The notes under the pieces were generated by a model. That model made no database searches, was not told where the DNA came from, and saw only the letters and a program-made list of their open reading frames with translations. Positions 1,485-13,378 of a stretch of DNA of 13,466 nucleotides are shown here, piece by piece (the first letter of the stretch is position 1; the number at the start of each line of letters is the position of its first letter). Location: NCBI GenBank assembly GCA_016926735.1, contig JAFGOA010000029.1:1-13466 (forward strand), given 5' to 3'. The position numbers and the translations under genes are program-made. The stretch comes from Promethearchaeota archaeon (GTDB taxonomy: Archaea; Asgardarchaeota; Lokiarchaeia; Sigyniarchaeales; SOKP01).

Positions 1485-3677
1485 TTATTTAAACACAATT
1501 TTTTTTGTTAAATTATCAAGTTTGGAAAAGTTTTCGTTTAATATTGTTCTTATTTTTTTGGTAGTAATGGTTGGGTTATTTAAAAAAAGATCACTAACAT
1601 AAGTTGTATATTTAATACCTTTTTTTGCGAGTTTATAATGCCATTTATTTGATTCATCATATAATGGGATAGGAAAATGAAAAGGTCTTTTATGGATATG
1701 ACGAGAACTTTTAATTACATTAATATATCTATTTAATAGTTGTGAATTTAGTATTGCTGAAAGATAATATGCTTCATATTTAGAATCGGTTGAATAATAA
1801 TAATTTTCAGAACCTATTATGATCCTTTCTTCATATTGTTTAATTACAGCAGATTTTATATTTGAACCACTTGCATTATAAACTACCGTATATAAATGAG
1901 GAGCTACTTGTTTTTTTAATTTATTCCAATAATTTAAATTAGAGAACAATGTATTAATTTTACTTGTTTTCTTCTTTTTCGTTTGATAAATTACGTTAAT
2001 ATCTCGATAGAATTTTTTAGCATATGGAAATTTGTCCATATGTTTTTCATTAAATTCATAAGTATCTCTCGTTATTGGGATAAAGACATTTCTTTTCTTT
2101 TTAATCAGAAATGGTACAAGATCCAAATTTAAGAAAGTTATATATCTAAAATCTTTCTCAATCTCCTTATTTTTGAATTTAAAAATCCATTCTTTTTTAG
2201 ATCTAGAGAGAATATCTTTATCAGAAGATATAATAAGTCTATTATCTAATGAATCCATTATATCAAAAAATACGAGAGTTCTCGGAACTAATGTTGCTCC
2301 TTGAAGAAACTTATCTTTATATTCACTATAATTAATATCTTTCAAAAATCTTAATTCTTTTTTAGGCAAAATTAACAGTGCGCCGTGTTTATTAATTTTA
2401 AGCGAGGAATAAAAAGTCTCATTCAGAATTACTAATTTTTCATCTAATATTTTTGTTTTAATCGGATATTTATCCCCAATAGTAGGATTTTGATCTGCTA
2501 TATATCTCGCTTTAAGACAAATATGATTAACATTAAAAAAATATCTTCTTGGAAAATCCCATATTTCTAGGTTATCAAATATTGAAAACGCTCTAAACTT
2601 TTGACAATGGTCTCCATTTAAAACACTTTGAGTCATAACAAAAAAGATTATCCCATTTATCTTGAGGAATCTTTTTGGAATTTGATAAAAAAAGATCGCT
2701 GCTAATTCAATATGAGTTATATATTGACTACCGGGTTTAATATCTAATATTTTAGCTAAATGTCTGATTTTATCTTGATATATTTTATCATTCAAATCCT
2801 TATATGTTAACCAAGGAGGATTACCAATTATTAAGTCAAATGAATTATAATGTTGGGATATTTTCTTATTTACAGTTAAATTATGATCATCAATTAGAGA
2901 GTCAATAAGAAAAATATTTTCATTAATAATCTCAAAACTAGTCCCAGCATATCCTGCATTAAATAGTAAAAGAATATTTGATTTAACTGTTAATATTGCA
3001 AGTGGGTTGATATCAAAACCATAAATTTTCTTTATCGCATCTATTTTTTGTTGTTCATTCTCATTAGAATTTATAATGTTCAAAAATATTTCTATAATAA
3101 AATTACCTGAACCGCATGACGGATCTAGGATTTTTTCTCCAAAAACATAAGAATCTTCTACCATTTTTTTTACTAGCTCAGAAGGAGTATAAAATTCTCC
3201 AATTCTATGTCTTGCAGATAAGAAAAACATATGTTGATATAATATATGAAATAAATCTCCATTAATTTGTTCCTTTTTTGTAATAAGGTTATAAATTTCT
3301 TTAAAAATCTTTTTACTTAATATGAACCAATCATAAATGTTAAATTCATCAATAAGAGATAATGGTTTATTTGATTTCGATAAATAATTTTCATAAGCAA
3401 AATCAATATCATTAGATTCATTGCAAATGATCTTTGATATTAAAAATACTTTCACAAGATTAATATAATAAATTTGTTTTAAAAATAAATCATAATTACA
3501 TTCTTGATCATAGATCTTTATAAAAATTGATTCCCATTCTTTATATTTTAATTCATATTCATCTTCTTTCAATAATTTTTTTTGTAAAAAATTATTTTTA
3601 AAAATTTTAAATATGTTTGAATTTAATCCAAATAAATATGTTATTGTATCTGAATCAATTTCCTTTTCTATAATCAT
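1485..3677 (-). CDS. N6-adenine DNA methyltransferase (N-6 DNA methylase/Eco57I/TaqI-like, gamma-type motif order) with C-terminal target recognition region
   Basis: 730 aa. Motif X GEFYTP, motif I ILDPSCGSGNF (SAM binding), motif II IYGFDINPLA, motif IV FDLIIGNPPW. C-terminal YYLSAILNS is typical of TaqI_C-like TRD regions. Confidence 0.9.
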   Translation of the reverse strand: MIIEKEIDSDTITYLFGLNSNIFKIFKNNFLQKKLLKEDEYELKYKEWESIFIKIYDQECNYDLFLKQIYYINLVKVFLISKIICNESNDIDFAYENYLSKSNKPLSLIDEFNIYDWFILSKKIFKEIYNLITKKEQINGDLFHILYQHMFFLSARHRIGEFYTPSELVKKMVEDSYVFGEKILDPSCGSGNFIIEIFLNIINSNENEQQKIDAIKKIYGFDINPLAILTVKSNILLLFNAGYAGTSFEIINENIFLIDSLIDDHNLTVNKKISQHYNSFDLIIGNPPWLTYKDLNDKIYQDKIRHLAKILDIKPGSQYITHIELAAIFFYQIPKRFLKINGIIFFVMTQSVLNGDHCQKFRAFSIFDNLEIWDFPRRYFFNVNHICLKARYIADQNPTIGDKYPIKTKILDEKLVILNETFYSSLKINKHGALLILPKKELRFLKDINYSEYKDKFLQGATLVPRTLVFFDIMDSLDNRLIISSDKDILSRSKKEWIFKFKNKEIEKDFRYITFLNLDLVPFLIKKKRNVFIPITRDTYEFNEKHMDKFPYAKKFYRDINVIYQTKKKKTSKINTLFSNLNYWNKLKKQVAPHLYTVVYNASGSNIKSAVIKQYEERIIIGSENYYYSTDSKYEAYYLSAILNSQLLNRYINVIKSSRHIHKRPFHFPIPLYDESNKWHYKLAKKGIKYTTYVSDLFLNNPTITTKKIRTILNENFSKLDNLTKKIVFK

Positions 3678-3838
3678 AATTTAAAATGTTCTTTTAATTT
3701 AGTTTTATATATCATTTTTCAGATAAATAAACCAATTCTACATATTTCTGTTGATATTGTAAAAAATATATTCTTATTTTTTAAAAATTAAAATTATTTT
3801 AATTATATTCATAATATAATAAATTTAAATTTTTTTTC

Positions 3839-4381
3839 TTATCTCATGAAAGATGGAAGTAATATATTGAATATTTCTTTAATTTTATTTAATTTTGATG
3901 ATTCGCTTATTTTTGTTTCTATTAAAATCGAATTCTCTAGTTCATTTTTATCAAGATTTCCACCCGAATATATAGCATTTTGATTATTAAAGACTAATAA
4001 AAATTTAACACGAGGGTTATTTATTATATCAACCCCTTTAAAATTCTTTAATTCATCATAGAAAGTACGATATTCTTTAGGGATTGCACTGCGTTCATTT
4101 GTAATAATTAATATTTTTATACCTTTATTAGCAAGATTTCTTATCTCATTAGTATAAAATCTGTCTATTACAGGACTTAGAATATTTAATTGATCCTCAG
4201 TTGTATTCATAAGTTCAAGAATTTCATTATTAAGTAATCCCTTACTATTTTGACCTCCAGATGTATTAATTTCAATATTTCCAACTAAAGAAAGTACTTT
4301 TAATTCTAAATCTTCTATTTGTTTTTTAAGTTTAGCATTTTCGATTCTAAATTCAGTAAGTCTATCAGACATTTTAGTCAC
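3839..4381 (-). CDS. N-terminal coiled coil plus phospholipase D/Nuc-like (PLDc_2) fold with degenerate HKD motif
   Basis: 180 aa from a GTG; the in-frame ATG at 4372 is a likely true start. Heptad segment LTEFRIENAKLKKQIEDLELKV. PLD-fold hallmarks ILELMNTTEDQLNILSPVID, NKGIKILIIT, and RVKFLLVFNNQNAIYSGGNL at the HxKxxxxDxxxxxxGSxN position. Confidence 0.65.
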   Translation of the reverse strand: MTKMSDRLTEFRIENAKLKKQIEDLELKVLSLVGNIEINTSGGQNSKGLLNNEILELMNTTEDQLNILSPVIDRFYTNEIRNLANKGIKILIITNERSAIPKEYRTFYDELKNFKGVDIINNPRVKFLLVFNNQNAIYSGGNLDKNELENSILIETKISESSKLNKIKEIFNILLPSFMR

Positions 4382-4506
4382 TACTCTAGATAATAAAATA
4401 ACTAATATAAAATTATAATAAAATCATATTATTTAACATTTAATTTTAGAAAATAAAAGATGAAAAAAAGTATTTGTTTTAAAAATAGAAAATTAAATCA
4501 GATAAA

Positions 4507-7083
4507 TTATAATTTTCTCCAAGGTTCGCCATATAAGATAAAACTTGAGATTGATAGACTATTTTCTATATTTATATGAGTATTATTTTTAATTTCATCT
4601 AAACTCGTTATATTTTGTTCTATGAGTTGCGTTGTTCGATCTGCAATATATTTTTGTCTTGCTTTAAGCAAAGAGATACCTATACTATTTTGTTCAAAAA
4701 GATTTTGAAAAATATCTGCGATAATTTGTTTAGTTTCTTCATTAAAAATTGGATAAACTCTTGAAATAATTCCTGTAATTGCACTAAGATCAAAGTTTGA
4801 GATGATCTCTCCAAAGCATCTTAAATCGTCTTTTATACGATCTCCTATTATATTATAAATTTGTGTGTTAAAAAATAAAACTGGTTTTGTTTTATTTTTA
4901 TTCTCTAATATGCTACCGAAAATTTCAGTGAATTTTATTATATCATTATCATTTGCGATGAAATAGCTATTTCTTGGATTCATATTTGAATAAAAAATAT
5001 TACCAACAATATATATTATCTTGTATGAGTTGTCTCTTATGGAATCTAGAATTTTTTGTTTTTGACTCTCTCTTCCAGATAAAATTTCAATTGTATTTAC
5101 TTCCTTACATTGATTAAAATAATTACTAATAAAAACCAATTCATTGTTACCAGCAGGAAAAGGGAACAATAGTTCCTTATTTTTAATATCCTCATTCCAT
5201 CTTATTGGTCCTAAAGAATTTGTGGAATCTATAATTAAAATATCATATTTTAAATTTTCTTCTTTATCAATTTCAATTAATTTTTCTTCTTCAAAATTTA
5301 TTCCATGAATCGGAGGTTCACCAATATTATACCCACAAGAATATTTTAAGAAGAAAAAATTTCCATCATATACCAATTCAAATGGTATAGTTATCGTATC
5401 AATTATATAATATATCTGAGGAATAAATTCAAGACTCCTAATTTTAAATTGAGAAAAGAAATTTCTTATATTTTTGGGTAAGGAAAGGTATAAAATAGCA
5501 CCTAATTCACTTAAAGTAAAATCATATAGTCTTTCTTTTTTATCTGAATATATATCATTATATAGTTCCATGAGATGAATATCATTCCAAAATTCATCTA
5601 TTATTTTCCCTTCTAACGTTTTATTATCTGTTGATAAGATTCTATAAGATAATTCACCTTGAGAATTAATCCTTAAAATAATATTTTTAATTTCAAAATC
5701 AATATTTTTTAAATTATAGCTGTTTTTTTCTTCTAATATATAGATATTTTTATTTAAATCAGAGGTTTCTTTATAAAGTAGTTCAAGATTGTTTAATAAG
5801 GGTTGTAATCTCTCATGTAATAATGGTAAAATTCTTTTTGCTAAATCAATATTATTTTCTTCATATAATGCTCTATAAAACAACATCCTCCAAAAATCCT
5901 GCTTATCTGAATAAAAAAACATTGATTTAAATTTCCATAAATAATTAGATGTATAAAAATAATGATATATTTGAGGTCCATTCTGAGGTATTTTAAGATT
6001 ATCTGATAATTTTTCAATTGATTGTAAAAGAAATTTTTTTTCTCTCATATTAACAAATTTGCTACAAGCTTCAGCCCATAATTCGATAAGCACATTGTCA
6101 TAACTTAAATCAGATTGTACTAAAAATAAATCTTCTAAAAAATCATAAATTTCATAGGAAATATCAAATTTATTTCTATCAATCGTATAATTTATAAATT
6201 GACGTATTTGAACAATAGCATCTCCAAGGGATTGAAATTGTTTGATATTTTTAAAAAGACTTCTAATAACAATAATAATCCAAGATGCCTCACCTACATT
6301 ATTTAAATATTCAATGAGATTCACAAGATCTTGTTGAATTGCGTTGAATGATCTCTCATTAATTGAAATTCTACTTAAATTACTAAAATCATTCTTTAGA
6401 TAATTTGGAATTCTATTTACTAAAATCTTATTCATTGCTTTTATAAAATCTTCAGAAGATTCTAAAAGATTAAATTTTATATTTACATTTTCAAGTATTA
6501 TATAGAGAAAAAGAGATCTTTTTCCAGGTTCTAATTTATATATAATCCTTCCCATACTTTCCATTGCTAATTTAAAATAATCAGTGGGAATTACAGTCTT
6601 TCTTAAGAACATCAATAATAATTGCAATTCAATTAATTTTAAAGTATTATTCTGTTCAATAACTTTTACAGAATATGAATTAAGAAATTTAGATATTCCC
6701 TCGGTTGATAGATCCTTTATAGAAATGAAACTTTTTAATAAATCAGAAGCAAATTTATCAAAAAGAGAAAAATCTTCTAATTTTGAGAGATACGAAAAAA
6801 ATCTTTGATATGCATCTATATATTTTATATAATCTAATCCTTCAGTCTTATTTTTTATTTTAAGTGAATTTAGATACATCCACCAAGAATTTGATATAAT
6901 AAGGATCAATTGGTGTTTTTTTTGAGCATCAAGCCATTCTTTTGTTTCTATATCAAAGTAAAGATCAAGAAATACTTTAGATGCCCAATGATGATTTCCT
7001 AATTGAAGGAGTTTTCTTCCATGAATAACATTATTTTGAAAATTACTCAGAAATTCTTCTTTCTTTTCTTTATTGATTAACAT
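4507..7083 (-). CDS. Large alpha-helical (solenoid/TPR-like) protein with C-terminal CHAT (caspase HetF-associated) domain, catalytic dyad apparently lost
   Basis: 858 aa. CHAT hallmarks LGAILYLSLP, IPFELVYDGNFFFLKY, SIGISLLKARQ and terminal SFILYGEP. The His motif reads IIYIVGN and the Cys motif reads LFFNTQ. The N-terminal ~450 aa look amphipathic-helical. Confidence 0.75.
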   Translation of the reverse strand: MLINKEKKEEFLSNFQNNVIHGRKLLQLGNHHWASKVFLDLYFDIETKEWLDAQKKHQLILIISNSWWMYLNSLKIKNKTEGLDYIKYIDAYQRFFSYLSKLEDFSLFDKFASDLLKSFISIKDLSTEGISKFLNSYSVKVIEQNNTLKLIELQLLLMFLRKTVIPTDYFKLAMESMGRIIYKLEPGKRSLFLYIILENVNIKFNLLESSEDFIKAMNKILVNRIPNYLKNDFSNLSRISINERSFNAIQQDLVNLIEYLNNVGEASWIIIVIRSLFKNIKQFQSLGDAIVQIRQFINYTIDRNKFDISYEIYDFLEDLFLVQSDLSYDNVLIELWAEACSKFVNMREKKFLLQSIEKLSDNLKIPQNGPQIYHYFYTSNYLWKFKSMFFYSDKQDFWRMLFYRALYEENNIDLAKRILPLLHERLQPLLNNLELLYKETSDLNKNIYILEEKNSYNLKNIDFEIKNIILRINSQGELSYRILSTDNKTLEGKIIDEFWNDIHLMELYNDIYSDKKERLYDFTLSELGAILYLSLPKNIRNFFSQFKIRSLEFIPQIYYIIDTITIPFELVYDGNFFFLKYSCGYNIGEPPIHGINFEEEKLIEIDKEENLKYDILIIDSTNSLGPIRWNEDIKNKELLFPFPAGNNELVFISNYFNQCKEVNTIEILSGRESQKQKILDSIRDNSYKIIYIVGNIFYSNMNPRNSYFIANDNDIIKFTEIFGSILENKNKTKPVLFFNTQIYNIIGDRIKDDLRCFGEIISNFDLSAITGIISRVYPIFNEETKQIIADIFQNLFEQNSIGISLLKARQKYIADRTTQLIEQNITSLDEIKNNTHINIENSLSISSFILYGEPWRKL

Positions 7084-7111
7084 ATTATTTAGTACAATAT
7101 ATGATATTTTT

Positions 7112-8281
7112 TTATTCTTGATTCATTAGATTTGGTTGTTCCTCTAAATTTGGATTTTTTATCCAACCTTGTAATTTATTTTGTGAATATAAAATAGATG
7201 CACCAATCCAACTCATATTCTCTCTTCCAGATGCTGCTATTATTTCTATCTTTGAGTGCAATTGCTCTGGAAAATATTTTTTTAATTCAAATGTCAATCT
7301 TTCTTTAATACCAGGAAATAAACTATTTCCTCCAGAAATTATAATATCGGATAAAAGATCGCTCCAATTTTCTCGATCCCAAAATTTTATAACTTTTGCA
7401 ATCGCCTCTGGAAGGCTAATATAGTCAATATGGATTAATTTTGGATCAAAAAGTGGTTCAACAAGTTGAAATCTTTCAAAATTTATGTCGAATTTAGAAT
7501 TATCTGGAAGATTTATCATTCTATTATATTTAGTTAAACCTTCTTTTATTTTCTCTCTTTCAGCTTTAGGATTCATTACACATATTCCCATTTTTTCTTT
7601 TATTTCTTTCGCTAAGTAATAATTGAGATAAATATTTTTACTCGCACCTCTCCCTTTCAACATTATACTAAGAAAAAAATTAGTTAGTTCTTTTCCTGCT
7701 ATAGGAAAAATATCTCTAGCCATTATATTTGTAAATCCTCGATAAATAGATGATATATATGTTTTTGATTCTCCCATATTAATGATAATTCCATCAGTTT
7801 TTTTTAATGTCGATAGAATTGCTTTATCATCATTTATAAATAAAATGTAAGGAAATTTAAATTCTTGAAAAAAAATATTTTCATACTTATTTCTATCAAT
7901 ATCGGTCATAATAAAAGAAGAAACTAAAATAATTGGTTGTAAATATCTATAATCTTCCGGAATCTTCAATTTTTCATAATGATAAAGAAAAAATTTTGAA
8001 AAAATATTATAATTGTTTTCTTTTTTAAATTCGTGAAGTTTAAGTATATTTTGATAAGTTAATGCTTCATTACCATAATAATATCCATCATCTTCATTAG
8101 ACATAAAAATTTCTTCAAGACCATCTATTACATCAGAATTGAAGATATAGTCTGTTCTATCTACATAAATACTTGGTGCAATAATATCTGGAAAATCATC
8201 ACCACCCCATCCCATTTTAAATGTATTACTTCCAATGTCTAAAACTAAGGGTCGAAGATACTTATCATTATCAGATGACAT
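7112..8281 (-). CDS. Divergent actin-related protein (Asgard ARP-like, actin family)
   Basis: 389 aa. Phosphate-1 LVLDIGSNTFKMGWGGDDFP, phosphate-2 GIIINMGESKTYISSIYRG, AGKELTNFF, EIKEKMG, LPD...ERFQLVEPLFDP, adenosine motif IIISGGNSLFPGIKERL, and SWIGASIL. All are collinear with eukaryotic actin motifs. Confidence 0.93.
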   Translation of the reverse strand: MSSDNDKYLRPLVLDIGSNTFKMGWGGDDFPDIIAPSIYVDRTDYIFNSDVIDGLEEIFMSNEDDGYYYGNEALTYQNILKLHEFKKENNYNIFSKFFLYHYEKLKIPEDYRYLQPIILVSSFIMTDIDRNKYENIFFQEFKFPYILFINDDKAILSTLKKTDGIIINMGESKTYISSIYRGFTNIMARDIFPIAGKELTNFFLSIMLKGRGASKNIYLNYYLAKEIKEKMGICVMNPKAEREKIKEGLTKYNRMINLPDNSKFDINFERFQLVEPLFDPKLIHIDYISLPEAIAKVIKFWDRENWSDLLSDIIISGGNSLFPGIKERLTFELKKYFPEQLHSKIEIIAASGRENMSWIGASILYSQNKLQGWIKNPNLEEQPNLMNQE

Positions 8282-8323
8282 TTTTGTAATAAATAATAAA
8301 AAAAGAACTATATATACTTACTC

Positions 8324-9052
8324 TTAGTGAAATAATTCATCTGAAATTCTTTTTAATTGGTACTCTTTTACTTGTAATTCTAATAATCCTAATACTTTCT
8401 TAAATTCACTAGACATATCTTGAATATTTACTTCTGCAATTCCTTCAATTTCATCTCTTTTAATTTTAAATTGTTCGAGATTTTCTTGAATGCGTCCATA
8501 TGATTGACTAATTTCTAAGACTAATTCCTCAGTATTTTTTTTTGTAATTTTTCTCATTTTTCTTAAGATTGAAAGAAGTGTAGAAATGGAATTTTCCCAA
8601 CGATTATATCTTTCGCCATATCCTTCGAAAGTTTGTGTAAAAAATTCACATAATTTATCATAAAGATCACTTTCTTTATTTTCTTTTTCTTTAATATCTC
8701 CTAATTGAGCAGATTCTGATACTTGCGTATTGCTTTGAATTATTTTTTCATTTTTAATAAGTTCTTCTTTAACTAATTTTTTTCTCTCTTTAATTCTTTC
8801 TCTTTGAGCAAGAGGTACTTCCTCAAGAGCATATTCTTCTGCAATTTCTTTAGCTTTTAATTTATCATAAGAAAGATGAGGTTCTATTTTATTTTCATCT
8901 TTATCTTTTCGTTGATAAGTTCCTTTACCTGTTGATAAAGACCCTAATAGACTATGTAAATCATCTCCAGTTTTTTCAGTTGATTTTAATGCTTCTTCCA
9001 AAGAAGGTGATTTTTTTTCCTTTTTCTTCTTATCCTTTTTTTTTTTTGCCAT
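8324..9052 (-). CDS. Hypothetical protein: Lys-rich N-terminus, charged low-complexity middle, C-terminal helical/coiled-coil domain
   Basis: 242 aa starting MAKKKKDKKKKEKKSP. The C-terminal ~115 aa have amphipathic heptad character. Stops 42 bp upstream of the ARP start. Confidence 0.75.
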   Translation of the reverse strand: MAKKKKDKKKKEKKSPSLEEALKSTEKTGDDLHSLLGSLSTGKGTYQRKDKDENKIEPHLSYDKLKAKEIAEEYALEEVPLAQRERIKERKKLVKEELIKNEKIIQSNTQVSESAQLGDIKEKENKESDLYDKLCEFFTQTFEGYGERYNRWENSISTLLSILRKMRKITKKNTEELVLEISQSYGRIQENLEQFKIKRDEIEGIAEVNIQDMSSEFKKVLGLLELQVKEYQLKRISDELFH

Positions 9053-9200
9053 AGTCCTATTTCATTTTAGTTAGTTTTTAATATAATATCTGTTCTTCTA
9101 TATTATCTTTGTGAAATTAATATTTTTTTAATGTTTACAAAAAAAATTTGTTTTTTTATTCATTCTTAAAACAAATAAGAAATAGAATTTTAATAAAATT

Positions 9201-9611
9201 TTAAAGTGGGACTATATCTACTTTTAAAGCATCTCCCTCTTGAATTAACCTCTCTCTAAGTTCATTAAGAGGAATATTTGGAGTAGGACTTATAACCGTC
9301 CATAAAGCTGTTTTATCTTTCTCTAAAATTGCGGATTCTCCATACATTAAGGATATTCCCAGACTTCCAAATGTTTCAGCAATTTTCGCTAATGATCCGG
9401 GTGAATCTGCCATCGTTATCTTTAATTTAATTGGTTGTTGATCTTTATCTAATCCTGCAGGAGTAATCTTAATTTCTTTAGTCTCTGTGTCTGCTACCAT
9501 CATTAATTGAGTATCTAATGTTATTCCAAAACTTTTTCGAATAACGAGTGGTAATACTAATCTCCCTCGATCATCAATCGATATAATCCTTACTTCTTTC
9601 ATGATTATCAA
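9201..9611 (-). CDS. AbrB/MazE/SpoVT-family DNA-binding domain fused to an ACT domain (small-molecule-sensing transcription regulator)
   Basis: SIDDRGRLVLPLVIRKSFGI is the AbrB swapped-hairpin signature; KITMADSPGSLAKIAETFGSLGISL is the ACT signature. The ORF starts at TTG 9611; the ATG at 9602 is a likely true start. Confidence 0.88.
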   Translation of the reverse strand: MIIMKEVRIISIDDRGRLVLPLVIRKSFGITLDTQLMMVADTETKEIKITPAGLDKDQQPIKLKITMADSPGSLAKIAETFGSLGISLMYGESAILEKDKTALWTVISPTPNIPLNELRERLIQEGDALKVDIVPL

Positions 9612-9911: not shown

Positions 9912-11903
9912 TTATTGAACATTTGATTTTAATTTAATTGAGAGATCTCGTGCTCTTTTAGAGTACCATATTAATAATTCCCCTGCATCTTCTGGTTTAA
10001 AGTATTCTCCACCACACAAAGAAGCAGCTCTAGACATTAATTCATCATCAGGGTTACCAAGTCCAACAATGTATATAATCACATTATTCATAGTTGAAAA
10101 TTGCTGTATCGCATTGAAAAATGCATCTCCATCAGTTGGAACTCCGTCCGTTAGCATAACAATCATTGTAGGTTGATTTGGGTTTATTTTGTTAAATTCA
10201 TTAAGGATATTCATTGATTTAACCATAGCATCACCCATATTTGTAGCTTGACCATAACTATTTCCTATACGATCAACAATCATCCTAGCAGATTCCTCAA
10301 GCACTCCTTTCTTTCCACTAGCAGAATCCATATAATAACTATTACCAAAAGGTAAAATCTGAGCTTCATCAGCAAACCGAATTACAGAAACTTTTTCACC
10401 GAAACCTCTACCCACCTTTTCGCTTAGAAATAAAACAGCTGCAAATGCTGCTGATATGCGTCTAGGTATGTTAATACCATCTTTAAAATTTTTTAAGAAC
10501 TCTTGAATTTCTCTTGATTCCATTGCTGCTTTTATTCCTTCAATAGCAGGTGCAATATTAGTAACATAAACGTCCCTTGCCATCATCGAACGACTTATGT
10601 CTATGATTAATATAGCATTAAAAGGGATTAATCCCATAGGGCTTAATGTAAGAGTTGTATTTTCTGTAATACAAGCTAATATATCACCTGATAAATCTGG
10701 AACGCAATTTAAAAAGGAGCAAGCTAAATTTACAACATTCCATCTTAATTTAATACCTTTAAATATAATATAATTTGAAAGCCATTGTTTTAGTTGGATA
10801 ATATTTTGTCGCGCTGTTGATATAAGTTCCCACATATTTTCACCAGCTACAGGAGATATACCTAAAGAAACACTTTGTAATGGAATTATTTGTCTTTGGT
10901 TCTTGTAGACTTTTACTTCATAACTTCCAATACCAGAGGCCTCTAAAATCTCACTATCAATAACAATTGTATTATCAGGAGCGGCTTCTGAAATTTGTAT
11001 TTTACCTGCACCAATAGCACCTGTAAGTTGATCTTCAAAAGCAACAATATCATTATTCTGAAGTGAGAGAGTATATTGAACTCTTGGATTAACTAAACAA
11101 AAGCCTTGAAGATCTCCTCTAGAATCAACTTGAAGCATAATTTGTTCTGCTTTTTTAATAGGAGGTTCCGTAGAATATATAACGATTTGTTCAGATTGGA
11201 TATTGGTATCTTCTTTTGTATCTTTACTCATTCTTATTTCTATATCGCTTATACTAGCCTCATCTATTCTCGCTGAACCTGTTGCTCTTGTTAGAGGGTC
11301 TTCCCAAACAATTAACATTCCTTGTCCAAGTCCTAGTTTTCTTAGATTACTTGAACTAATTTGTACTCTACCTCCCGCAATCGAAGGAGAAACAATAGGT
11401 TTTACTTTAATTCCATTTTTTTGTTTTTTTAGAACATCAACATTAATTTGATTTGAGTATGTCTGAGGTTGAGGAGCTTGAGGGCCTAGAGGTCGCTGAA
11501 AACTAGACGGAGCAGATTGATAAGGCATACTAGGTGGTGGGGGTGGTGCATATCCTTGTGTTGGAGGCGCAGGGTAAGAATGTACTGGAGGGGATGGAGC
11601 TTGGAACTGTTGAGGCTGTTGAAATTGTTGTGGTTGTTGATATTGTTGAGTACCTTTCCTTAGAATAAGTTCTACACCACTATATTCTAGATTACGTATT
11701 ATATCTCCTGAAAATTTCCCAGCAAAATCTAGTACTTGGCTAGATATTTCAACAGAAGCAAATACTGTTTTATAATTATCTGGATTAAATATTTCTACTT
11801 GCTCTCCATTAGCTACTCCTAATATCTGAGCATTTCCTGGAGATATAATTACTTTATTTGTAATATCATTATTTTGATCAACAAATATTTTTATCTCTGG
11901 CAT
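9912..11903 (-). CDS. Multidomain protein: 3 x double-psi beta-barrel (CDC48/p97 N-like), Pro/Gln-rich linker, CDC48_2-like subdomain, C-terminal vWA domain
   Basis: 663 aa. vWA MIDAS intact: IIDISRSM (D435-x-S-x-S), GQATNMGDAM, MLTDGVPT, then IYIVGLG and GGEYF. Three repeats VIISPGNAQILGVANGEQVEI / VQISSSNLRKLGLGQGMLIVW / CLVNPRVQYTLSLQNNDIVAF match the DPBB pattern. Confidence 0.8.
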   Translation of the reverse strand: MPEIKIFVDQNNDITNKVIISPGNAQILGVANGEQVEIFNPDNYKTVFASVEISSQVLDFAGKFSGDIIRNLEYSGVELILRKGTQQYQQPQQFQQPQQFQAPSPPVHSYPAPPTQGYAPPPPPSMPYQSAPSSFQRPLGPQAPQPQTYSNQINVDVLKKQKNGIKVKPIVSPSIAGGRVQISSSNLRKLGLGQGMLIVWEDPLTRATGSARIDEASISDIEIRMSKDTKEDTNIQSEQIVIYSTEPPIKKAEQIMLQVDSRGDLQGFCLVNPRVQYTLSLQNNDIVAFEDQLTGAIGAGKIQISEAAPDNTIVIDSEILEASGIGSYEVKVYKNQRQIIPLQSVSLGISPVAGENMWELISTARQNIIQLKQWLSNYIIFKGIKLRWNVVNLACSFLNCVPDLSGDILACITENTTLTLSPMGLIPFNAILIIDISRSMMARDVYVTNIAPAIEGIKAAMESREIQEFLKNFKDGINIPRRISAAFAAVLFLSEKVGRGFGEKVSVIRFADEAQILPFGNSYYMDSASGKKGVLEESARMIVDRIGNSYGQATNMGDAMVKSMNILNEFNKINPNQPTMIVMLTDGVPTDGDAFFNAIQQFSTMNNVIIYIVGLGNPDDELMSRAASLCGGEYFKPEDAGELLIWYSKRARDLSIKLKSNVQ
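11601..11648 (-). repeat. Short imperfect 18-bp coding tandem repeat (QQ[Y/F]QQP, about 2.7 copies)
   Basis: Plus strand ttggaactgttgaggctgttgaaattgttgtggttgttgatattgttg encodes QQYQQPQQFQQPQQFQ on the minus strand. Confidence 0.7.
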
Positions 11904-12036: not shown

Positions 12037-12426
12037 TTATGCTTTTGGATATCTTTTCTTAATTTCTCCTGCATAATATCTAAAAACAGAGACTACTTTT
12101 CCTAAATCACCAATCTTTCTAGAACCACCCATTAAGAAAAATCTTCCAGCATCTGATAAAATAATAAATGCATCTTTCCCACGAAGGATAACTTCTAACA
12201 TATTTTTATATCCTAAAGTCGTTATGGCATCAGTACCTGCTTGTAATGCTACAGCACTAAGACTTGAAAAAAGATCTGGATCTACTTCATAACCAGGAAC
12301 AGAAGAAAATGCTAATCTTAATCCTTCGCGAGTAATTAGTGCTAATGCTTCTAATTCTGAATGTTCAGTTATGTTTCCTAAAAATTTTGATAAGTTTTCA
12401 GCTTCTTCAACAGTTAAGTCAGACAT
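12037..12426 (-). CDS. Roadblock/LC7 (MglB/LAMTOR-like) domain protein
   Basis: 129 aa with the Roadblock pattern LEALALITREGLRLAFS...DPDLFSSLSAVALQAG...LEVILRGKDAFIILSDAG...DLGKV. Confidence 0.9.
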   Translation of the reverse strand: MSDLTVEEAENLSKFLGNITEHSELEALALITREGLRLAFSSVPGYEVDPDLFSSLSAVALQAGTDAITTLGYKNMLEVILRGKDAFIILSDAGRFFLMGGSRKIGDLGKVVSVFRYYAGEIKKRYPKA

Positions 12427-12541: not shown

Positions 12542-13378
12542 TTATGATTTTGATTCTAATTGTTTTTTAATTTGATCTTGAAGTACATTCTTTTTCTTAG
12601 CGAGTGTTTTGGGATTCCCACTATCTTTCTGTTTCAAAAATTCGATAGCTACAATTTTACCATTTTCAGAAAGGATTCTTGGAGAATAATCTTCAGCAAA
12701 AAATATTCCTTCAGGAATTGAACCTACTTTTTCAATTACCTTTTCACTTTGTTTTTTTCCTAAAAATGATTGGACTTTTTCAACAACAGAATATGCATAA
12801 CTACCAATAATTATTAATTCTCTTTCATATCCTTCTGGTATTTTAATTTCCTCTAATTTTCGCATAATTTGTTCAAAATTTACTTGAGATTGATCTGATG
12901 TATATTGAGCCATCGAATTAGCACCAGTATAAAGAGGTCCAGTATTTTGAGCTCTGTCTCTACTACCAGCAATATTCATACCACTCGCGGGGCTAGGAGG
13001 TGAAAATATTGGTTTATCTCTAAGTGGGTGACCCCCACTGCCACCACCGCTACCACCCAAGTCCTCCGCTTTAATCTCTTTGGCAATTCCATCGGTAGTA
13101 GGCCCTCCAACAAGATCTATAAATTCTTGCTCTTCTTCTCCTTGATCCTGAGGAACAACAACATAGTGCATACCTACTTGACCTCTAAAGTCTTGACTTC
13201 GTTTAGCGCCTATAAATTTCTTTCTTACACTGCTTTTTTGTCCTTTCCACAGATATACTTTTCTTACATCATCAGCAATGAGAACATAACATTCATCATC
13301 CTTGAGAATATCTTTAATATTCCCTTCAGATTGTACTTGATCAGTTGTACCATCATTATTTATACGGAAAACTTGCAT
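12542..13378 (-). CDS. Single gelsolin-domain protein with Gly/Pro linker and additional C-terminal domain (Asgard 1DGelX-like)
   Basis: 278 aa. Residues ~1-92 fit a gelsolin repeat: LKDDECYVL...VYLWKGQKSS...QDQGEEEQEFIDLVGG. Linker GGSGGGSGGHP...SPPSP. Globular alpha/beta region at ~165-250. Confidence 0.85.
   Translation of the reverse strand: MQVFRINNDGTTDQVQSEGNIKDILKDDECYVLIADDVRKVYLWKGQKSSVRKKFIGAKRSQDFRGQVGMHYVVVPQDQGEEEQEFIDLVGGPTTDGIAKEIKAEDLGGSGGGSGGHPLRDKPIFSPPSPASGMNIAGSRDRAQNTGPLYTGANSMAQYTSDQSQVNFEQIMRKLEEIKIPEGYERELIIIGSYAYSVVEKVQSFLGKKQSEKVIEKVGSIPEGIFFAEDYSPRILSENGKIVAIEFLKQKDSGNPKTLAKKKNVLQDQIKKQLESKS

Follow-up and report, generated by a model that had tools for sequence, protein, structure and literature searches.

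A conserved Lokiarchaeial gene cluster that pairs a divergent actin-related protein with a CHAT-like pseudoprotease, and the probably non-enzymatic assembly it may encode

Actin-related proteins (ARPs) of Asgard archaea figure in every inventory of eukaryote-like proteins, and we know of none with a known partner or function. What such a protein might do, and with what, is the question raised by a locus on contig JAFGOA010000029.1 of a Promethearchaeota archaeon (assembly GCA_016926735.1), from which a stretch of 13,466 nucleotides, hereafter the window, was analysed. Here, the minus strand carries four neighbouring, co-directional open reading frames (ORFs) at positions 3839..9052: gene 1 (labelled "cc"; 8324..9052, 242 aa), which matches no known family; a divergent ARP (7112..8281, 389 aa), which matches Pfam Actin; a CHAT-like pseudoprotease (4507..7083, 858 aa); and a small PLD-like protein (3839..4381, 180 aa). 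A first-pass annotation of the sequence had taken them for one complex of a coiled-coil protein and three inactive enzyme folds, and ORF calling recovers the gaps of 42, 28, and 125 bp and the full-length frames that it reported, with internal stops absent from all four. The explanation that we prefer, and to which we give about an even chance, is that this is a conserved operon-like cluster of Lokiarchaeia, composed of two co-inherited gene pairs and encoding a probably non-enzymatic assembly.

How widely is the cluster conserved? Twenty loci were fetched from the 131 of 400 phylum genomes that have a match to the CHAT-like gene, and they were chosen to span 13 genera of one family (f1), plus two other families (f2 and f3) of the same Lokiarchaeial order; 15 of these loci are from f1 and 5 from f2 or f3. 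The order gene 1, ARP, CHAT-like, PLD-like is found in all 20, with median gaps of 53, 27, and 84 bp, and a 4-bp overlap joins the ARP and CHAT-like ORFs in 3 of 21 loci (a further apparent overlap of 98 bp, at locus L052, comes from an uncertain start-codon assignment). A test of synteny across Loki, Hel, Thor, and Heimdall genomes had been suggested: the gene order is kept in the loci fetched from three families of this one order, and no orthologue was found elsewhere in the phylum. The CHAT-like gene is present in 117 of 134 f1 genomes, in the single f2 genome, and in 7 of 14 f3 genomes; outside the order, there are only weak matches, in 5 of 250 phylum genomes and restricted to the CHAT domain, so the cluster belongs to one order of Lokiarchaeia and not to Asgard archaea at large. 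The ratio of nonsynonymous to synonymous substitution rates (dN/dS), which the annotation had also proposed to compute, indicates purifying selection on all four genes: it lies at 0.04-0.27 in all 20 of the pairs whose dS was usable (dS was saturated in three more), with ranges of 0.11-0.25 for gene 1, 0.11-0.17 for the ARP, and 0.04-0.22 for the PLD-like protein.

The f3 family reveals how the four genes are grouped. In two of its genera, g15 and g18, gene 1 and the PLD-like gene directly abut in 5 of 5 genomes (G131, G132, G135, G136, and G137), one of which, G135, is a single contig. The CHAT-like profile has no match in any of these five genomes, and their best match to the ARP profile does not exceed 205 bits, which is the level of paralogues, as against 440-600 bits for orthologues. 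In a tree of the concatenated PLD-like and gene 1 proteins, g18 falls among genera that have the full cluster (g16, g19, and g20; supports 0.996 and 0.928), and g15 is sister to the rest of f3. As the whole set of four is present in f1 and f2, this tree is most simply read to mean that the ARP and the CHAT-like gene have been lost jointly, and independently, at least twice. The cluster is, in other words, made of two gene pairs: an inner pair, the ARP and the pseudoprotease, which is dispensable and co-inherited, and an outer pair, gene 1 and the PLD-like gene, which stands alone.

Absences of other kinds occur in f1. Five genomes that are 92-99% complete (G179, G181, G209, G211, and G238) have no match to gene 1, to the CHAT-like gene, or to the PLD-like gene; the last four also have no ARP orthologue, and in all five the ACT-like neighbour of the cluster (see below) is missing and the methyltransferase is only 36-40% identical. 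Deletion and an unassembled locus look the same in such cases, from which no inference is drawn. Three more f1 genomes that have the PLD-like gene without the CHAT-like gene (G230, G248, and G256) were considered as losses and rejected, the contig ending at most 15 bp past the PLD-like match in 3 of 3, so that these are assembly breaks.

What, then, does the inner pair encode? The ARP is matched by Pfam Actin (PF00022) over residues 10-375 (E 3.2e-45; 154.9 bits for a cut-off of 27), and it matches PDB actins at E 4.2e-35 in phmmer. In actin, Q137 and H161 activate water, and D154 serves the metal and phosphate. The phmmer alignment to the actin chain 1dej_A agrees with the replacements that the annotation had read here (Q137 to D, D154 to N, and H161 to Y) and adds E at the position of D157; a second alignment places K instead of D at position 137, and neither alignment has Gln there. 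None of the three residues of a catalytically competent actin is thus present in the window protein. Retained in the 1dej_A alignment are D11, G13, S14, and K18, and the phosphate loops are largely kept (DIGS, NMGES, and SGG). Among 21 orthologues, Q137 occurs in none and H161 in none; position 137 is occupied by D, E, F, S, H, or N, and position 154 by N in 16, S in 1, and D in 4. In the f3 ARPs, aromatic or His residues replace D157 and G158, which makes nucleotide binding by these proteins doubtful.

The source genome has four actin-family loci, and its Lokiactin-like paralogue, which served as a control, retains Q137, D154, D157, and H161. A tree of 25 actin-family proteins from 6 genomes resolves four orthologous groups, in which the cluster ARP forms its own long-branched clade (support 0.974). 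When the ARP family profile is run against the PDB, conventional actins come first (E 3.1e-58), with no ARP class among the 60 matches listed; in a search with the single sequence, Arp1 scores 5e-32 versus 4e-35 for actin. An oddity of this gene concerns locus L052, from a complete 6.0-Mb genome: ATG, GTG, and TTG are all absent from the frame of the ARP orthologue (L052:10465-11550, minus strand) ahead of its conserved N-terminal strand, and the first canonical start would remove around 50 residues.

The 858-aa protein of the window has no match in Pfam at E<=0.1. Its nature emerges from the family: PF12770 (CHAT) matches 18 of 21 orthologues (best 6.8e-11); aligned by hhalign with 12 genuine CHAT proteins, the family scores a probability of 99.8 and an E-value of 4.3e-30 over 279 columns; and the remote matches of the family profile in a library of 1.8 billion proteins are genuine CHAT proteins in 10 of the 10 non-family proteins scanned. 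By sequence and by fold, the protein belongs to the CHAT domain family (PF12770; clan CD, caspase-like). The family profile finds nothing below E 0.17 among PDB sequences, and none of the 21 orthologues matches Peptidase_C50 (PF03568) at E<=0.05. The CHAT domain carries an insertion of around 20 residues that is specific to the family and that ordinary CHAT domains do not have; N622, P626, W629, and F642 are invariant in it.

In genuine CHAT domains, the aligned His and Cys are present in 10 of 10, and H300 and C341 are invariant in 12 of 12. The annotation had proposed that in the window protein His has given way to Asn and Cys to Gln, and this is what the alignment contains: G-H reads G-N (Asn695), and N-A-C reads N-T-Q. 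Among the 10 family members aligned, nine have N and one has I in place of His, and Cys is replaced in all 10 (Q in 5, R in 2, and K, H, and V in 1 each); at least 90% of the 21 orthologues carry N695. The His-Cys dyad of an active CHAT protease is absent.

The structure was modelled with AlphaFold2 (AF2) from a 21-row alignment (predicted local distance difference test, pLDDT, 84.1; predicted template modelling score, pTM, 0.75). The model consists of a solenoid of 22 helices (residues 1-445, encoded at 5749..7083 on the minus strand), which is TPR-like and is the predicted ARP-binding part, of a small sheet (residues 465-494), and of an alpha/beta domain (residues 500-858); the small sheet and the CHAT/caspase-like domain, recognised by hhalign and VIA-align, together span residues ~465-858 (4507..5691, minus strand). 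For the N-terminal half, the ESM Atlas gives TPR-like leads at 0.79, which is below the trusted level. The protein models as an alpha-solenoid followed by a CHAT domain, and its closest solved counterparts are Csx29 and separase. Full-length Foldseek matching against the PDB ranks Csx29 first (8eey_B, E 2.9e-11), the CHAT-containing anti-sigma factor DdvA second (1.8e-8), and then separases (human 9hm7, 2.1e-7). In VIA-align, the C-terminal part aligns with Csx29 7zoq_A (model residues 465-854; Z 18.2, root-mean-square deviation (rmsd) 3.9 A, 297 residues aligned), with the separase protease domain 5fby_A (model residues 455-858; Z 17.7, rmsd 4.1 A, 291 aligned), and with gingipain R 1cvr (Z 14.0, rmsd 4.8 A, 282 aligned); another Csx29 chain, 7y9x_B, gives Z 19.7 with an rmsd of 14.8 over 367 aligned residues.

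In the outer pair, the PLD-like protein also lacks the residues of its presumed ancestral chemistry. PLDc_2 (PF13091) matches 12 of 21 orthologues at E<=0.05 (best 3.2e-6), PADLOC DrmC matches the window protein at 7.9e-5, and the best solved relative is NucT (6ehi, E 0.0028); similarity to NucT, DrmC, and PLDc_2 at the level of hidden Markov models (HMMs) covers residues ~45-175. The profile match of the family begins at 4372, pointing to the ATG there as the likely true start, which would give a protein of 177 aa. The replacement of HxK by KxL, noticed in the annotation, can be read directly from a local alignment in which RPRIHFKLML, from a real PLD-type ORF of another Asgard genome, falls without gaps on NPRVKFLLVF. 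No His occurs in the HxK segment of any of 21 orthologues, where the His position is K in 12, R in 6, and V, N, and T in 1 each, and the Lys position is hydrophobic in 21 of 21; the HxK(x)4D motif of an active PLD is absent. Taking the three proteins together, no examined orthologue keeps the catalytic residues. The annotation had named their retention as the sign of lineage-specific decay, and the result implies instead that the losses are ancestral. None of the encoded proteins is likely to be an enzyme.

The C-terminal LPSFMR of the PLD-like protein (window 3839-3859) is invariant in 21 of 21 orthologues, of which a few carry one or two residues after the motif. Could this tail dock in the CHAT groove? 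A profile search found full-length distant homologues of the PLD-like protein in three other families of the class, and 0 of 7 loci have an ARP, CHAT, or gene 1 homologue beside them. These seven distant homologues keep LP[SQHR]F[MLV][RQKS], often with further residues after it and without a CHAT neighbour, which favours a role of LPSFMR within the fold over docking. Their surroundings differ: at L055, L056, L060, and L061, an Arf-like GTPase fusion of 525-575 aa, a coiled-coil protein of 366-411 aa, and an ORF of 126-129 aa are nearby, and at L057 and L059, the homologue comes immediately after a giant protein (2341 and 2399 aa). No fused forms of the PLD-like protein were seen among longer proteins, which is weak evidence.

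Gene 1 was called a coiled-coil protein in the annotation, and this label found no support: in a crude home-made test of heptads, its maximum of 0.47 was equalled by 60 of 300 shuffles. By the same kind of test, it is the N-terminus of the PLD-like protein that appears to carry the heptad or coiled-coil signal (0.65, equalled by 2 of 300 shuffles). The N-terminus of the gene 1 protein is rich in Lys, and its middle, in which short conserved motifs occur, is variable and probably disordered; the C-terminal domain of ~115 aa (residues ~125-242) is conserved, and an alignment of 20 orthologues gives F137, Y149, W152, N173, F195, K198, Q227, and E230 as invariant. Pfam returned sub-threshold matches only, a PDB profile search gave a best E of 0.089, and the C-terminus returned only its own cluster from the ESM Atlas, with no relatives found outside the order. 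Following the poly-Lys start is a conserved motif, ALKSxKKTE..LQxLL (window 8950-9000), which may resemble WH2- or thymosin-like, actin-monomer-binding sequences.

Do the products of the inner pair bind each other? One complex prediction was made, in which the ARP was the partner and the other two chains were the pseudoprotease (residues 1-430) and the gene 1 protein (residues 65-242). The interface score (ipSAE) was 0.57 (runs of 0.57, 0.56, and 0.57), as against 0.00 for the best of three controls; the runs agree in at least 97% of contacts, and the pLDDT of the partner is at least 78. In calibration, 116 of 157 solved complexes attained the mark, as did 2 of 215 mismatched pairs, and the result weakly supports a contact. 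The control in which the solenoid was replaced and gene 1 kept scored 0.00, from which it follows that the predicted contact is that of the ARP with the solenoid and not with gene 1. We know of no solved complex of an actin with a TPR-CHAT protein that the model could remember. Of the ARP-containing, multi-subunit complex for which the annotation had advised multimer modelling, what stands is this weakly supported ARP-solenoid contact; an ARP-gene 1 contact found no support, and the four-gene set is not obligate, as the 5 of 5 g15 and g18 genomes illustrate. An ARP-pseudoprotease unit is, on the whole, likely.

These observations suggest the following arrangement. The inner pair would comprise a fast-evolving ARP, unable to use the hydrolysis residues of actin, and a separase/Csx29-like "TPR-CHAT" protein without the protease dyad; the ARP would be a stable, non-polymerising subunit seated on the N-terminal helical solenoid, and the dead CHAT groove would offer a surface that holds peptides and does not cut them. 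The outer pair would be an older platform that also works without the inner pair: gene 1, whose product is rich in Lys, disordered in part, and conserved in its C-terminal domain, and a dead PLD-like protein that has a coiled coil and ends in LPSFMR. The two pairs may dock on each other, and the assembly may be an adaptor on the Lokiactin cytoskeleton in which the ARP mimics a subunit of actin, although this last step is a guess. A bolder version, which we consider improbable, is that the ARP is a fixed subunit of a separase-like scaffold whose CHAT groove holds a pseudosubstrate provided by gene 1, in the manner of securin, the whole tethering Lokiactin filaments to DNA or membrane. If it were true, the use of an ARP as a subunit and the separase-like build of helices plus caspase fold would have been partnered in Asgard archaea before eukaryotes.

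The neighbourhood supplies the context for these ideas. The window is very AT-rich (GC 0.19-0.33), it comes from a 3.88-Mb Asgard genome, and all ten of its sizeable ORFs are on the minus strand; public homologues of their products are labelled Lokiarchaeota or Promethearchaeota, and nearly all are called "hypothetical protein" or "actin-related protein". The genes upstream of the cluster are one at 12542-13378 for a gelsolin-like protein, one at 12037-12426 for a Roadblock/LC7 protein, one at 9912-11903 whose VWA product of 663 aa has a linker rich in Pro and Gln, and one at 9201-9611 for a small ACT plus AbrB/MazE-like protein. In 14 of 15 f1 loci and in the f2 locus, gene 1 is preceded by the ACT-like gene, and the gelsolin-like, Roadblock/LC7, and VWA genes recur in several f1 loci. 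Downstream are a 730-aa N6-adenine methyltransferase (1485-3677) and a fast-evolving 377-aa ORF with hydrophobic N-terminal segments (125-1258), which is detectable in only 1 of 20 related loci. The methyltransferase is closest to the methylase part of type IIG restriction-modification enzymes (PADLOC RE-MTase 1.4e-34; DrmMI 1.3e-4), and no nuclease domain was seen in it; of the f1 loci, 9 of 15 have it next to the cluster and in the same orientation, as against 0 of 5 f2/f3 loci. In f3 (L051, L052, L053, L087, L089, and L091), a gene for a Hef-like helicase/ERCC4 nuclease and one for a PHP-domain protein precede the cluster on the same strand, an arrangement common to its four-gene and two-gene forms. 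Each f3 locus also has an ORF of 381-413 aa downstream of the cluster, with no Pfam match in the three scanned (L051-L053); it was considered as a core member and rejected, being dissimilar to the 377-aa ORF of the window and without a match in G000. Three metatranscriptome contig sets match window 3700-9300 only in pieces of ~18-29 nt, which says nothing on expression.

Other explanations of the cluster must be weighed against these data. That all four proteins are needed together in one obligate complex, as the annotation had it, would fit the unbroken four-gene order in 20 of 20 loci, the short gaps, and the purifying selection on every gene. However, the g15 and g18 genomes, 5 of 5, keep gene 1 and the PLD-like gene side by side and have neither the ARP nor the CHAT-like gene, the distant PLD-like homologues in three other families have no ARP or CHAT-like neighbour in 7 of 7 loci, and the control that kept gene 1 with the ARP scored 0.00; we therefore regard an obligate four-subunit complex as unlikely. 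The opposite extreme is that the genes are co-regulated in one pathway whose products form no stable complex, adjacency reflecting co-expression only. Synteny alone does not, indeed, demonstrate binding, and 7 of 44 blind-picked neighbours passed the same kind of complex prediction, in which the ARP result was weak. Yet co-expression alone would leave unexplained the 4-bp overlap of the ARP and CHAT-like ORFs in 3 of 21 loci, their joint loss at least twice, and the contrast of 0.57 with 0.00 in the complex scores; moreover, it would have to find a task for three "enzymes" without catalytic residues, to which binding is left as the plausible activity. This explanation, too, has rather little probability in our estimation.

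Two further possibilities are much more remote. One is an anti-virus defence module, or the remnant of one, in which a CHAT protease, a PLD nuclease, and the adjacent N6-methyltransferase would act in the manner of DISARM or Craspase. The closest solved fold is, after all, that of Csx29 from a type III-E system, and the DrmC match of the PLD-like protein (7.9e-5) and the matches of the 730-aa protein to the type IIG RE-MTase (1.4e-34) and DrmMI (1.3e-4) point in the same direction. However, gene 1, the ARP, and the CHAT-like protein have 0 PADLOC matches at E<=0.01, no Cas-related Pfam match occurs among the 10 window ORFs, and the nuclease and protease residues are missing from all orthologues. 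The genes are, besides, single-copy and vertically inherited across the order, their trees following the families, and the methyltransferase keeps to the cluster in 9 of 15 f1 loci and none of the 5 f2/f3 loci; a defence role is very improbable. The other possibility is that catalysis persists in these proteins by way of substitute residues, for example, Asp or Glu at position 137 of the ARP or another nucleophile in the CHAT domain. In its favour, f1 ARPs keep D11, G13, S14, G156, and the SGG loop, with an acidic residue at 137 in 13 of 15 f1 orthologues. Against it, the catalytic positions vary among orthologues (the Cys site of CHAT, the His site of PLD, and position 137 of the ARP), and positions 157/158 are aromatic in f3 ARPs; such variation makes a conserved chemistry unlikely, and we give substitute catalysis hardly any weight.

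The reading in terms of two pairs and a probably non-enzymatic assembly has difficulties of its own, which weigh against it as follows. It is built throughout from sequence comparison and structure prediction. The match of PLDc_2 to the window PLD-like protein (E 1.4e-4, 22.1 bits) falls short of the cut-off of 27. Q137 and H161 are also missing from the two other ARP paralogues that the source genome has, so that this loss is not special to the cluster ARP. In the calibration of the complex prediction, scores at or below 0.60 comprise 18 of the 157 solved complexes and both of the mismatches, and such a weak pass is wrong in most cases unless the contact was already probable; here, the overlapping ORFs and the joint losses had made it probable. 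Three chains, each with its own alignment, also differ from the set-up that was calibrated, and the prediction covered only the N-terminal half of the 858-aa protein, beside the ARP and part of gene 1. Finally, a cytoskeletal role is suggested only by the gelsolin-like and Roadblock neighbours upstream, seen at the level of family, and in f3 these are replaced by the Hef-like helicase-nuclease and the PHP protein.

Has any of this been described? The annotation was not aware of a description, and a full-text literature search found no paper on this cluster, although supplements could hold neighbourhood tables; supplements aside, the search found no description of an Asgard CHAT- or separase-like pseudoprotease or of a partner for an Asgard ARP. 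In PMC12962969, there is no mention of Arp, actin-related, separase, or caspase, and ARPs or separase are mentioned only in passing in 10.64898/2026.10.28.762692, PMC13247210, and 10.1101/2024.01.07.573240. Newly recognised here are the two-pair structure, the joint losses, the pseudoprotease fold, and the predicted ARP-solenoid interface. The cluster gives one Asgard ARP a concrete candidate partner, with the build of separase and Csx29 and its chemistry lost. Were the binding confirmed, this would be the first ARP-containing assembly outside eukaryotes, and pseudoenzyme scaffolds would already have been in use in the lineage nearest to eukaryotes. As the order has complete, single-contig genomes, the cluster should be within experimental reach, and its natural two-gene and four-gene variants offer a ready comparison.

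How does the cluster compare with known systems? The best structural match, Csx29 (the TPR-CHAT protease of the type III-E CRISPR "Craspase"), has the same two-part build, with an N-terminal helical repeat that holds partners and a C-terminal CHAT domain. Unlike in Csx29, the catalytic His and Cys are missing from all examined members of the 858-aa family; no Cas7-11 or Csx30/31-like gene is present within the window (the rest of the genome was not searched for Cas7-11); and the neighbour and predicted partner is an actin-fold protein, in a gene set inherited vertically in one archaeal order. Separase likewise has a helical N-terminal region and a caspase-like C-terminal domain, a similarity of structure only: the 858-aa protein has no C50 match and no dyad, is around half as long, and has no known link to cohesin, and Csx29 ranks higher. 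Gene 1, which encodes a small, largely disordered protein two genes upstream of the pseudoprotease, might by analogy be likened to securin.

On the side of actin, "Ca. Lokiarchaeum ossiferum" has, according to a study based on phylogeny and quantitative reverse-transcription PCR (RT-qPCR), four actin homologues, of which three are ARPs (PMC9834061). The four actin-family loci of the source genome equal that number, one of them being Lokiactin-like with its catalytic residues intact, and the cluster ARP falls in a non-Lokiactin group; the passages of that study on ARPs make no mention of a gene neighbourhood, partner, or function. The eukaryotic case offers a parallel in kind, even though no specific ARP class stands out for the cluster ARP, and TPR-CHAT and PLD-like partner families are unknown from eukaryotic ARP complexes. 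In eukaryotes, ARPs serve as subunits outside filaments: in Arp2/3, in dynactin (Arp1/Arp11), and in INO80/SWR1 (Arp4/5/6/8). Like them, the cluster ARP is a divergent actin-fold protein; it is encoded beside its likely partner and is probably a structural subunit.

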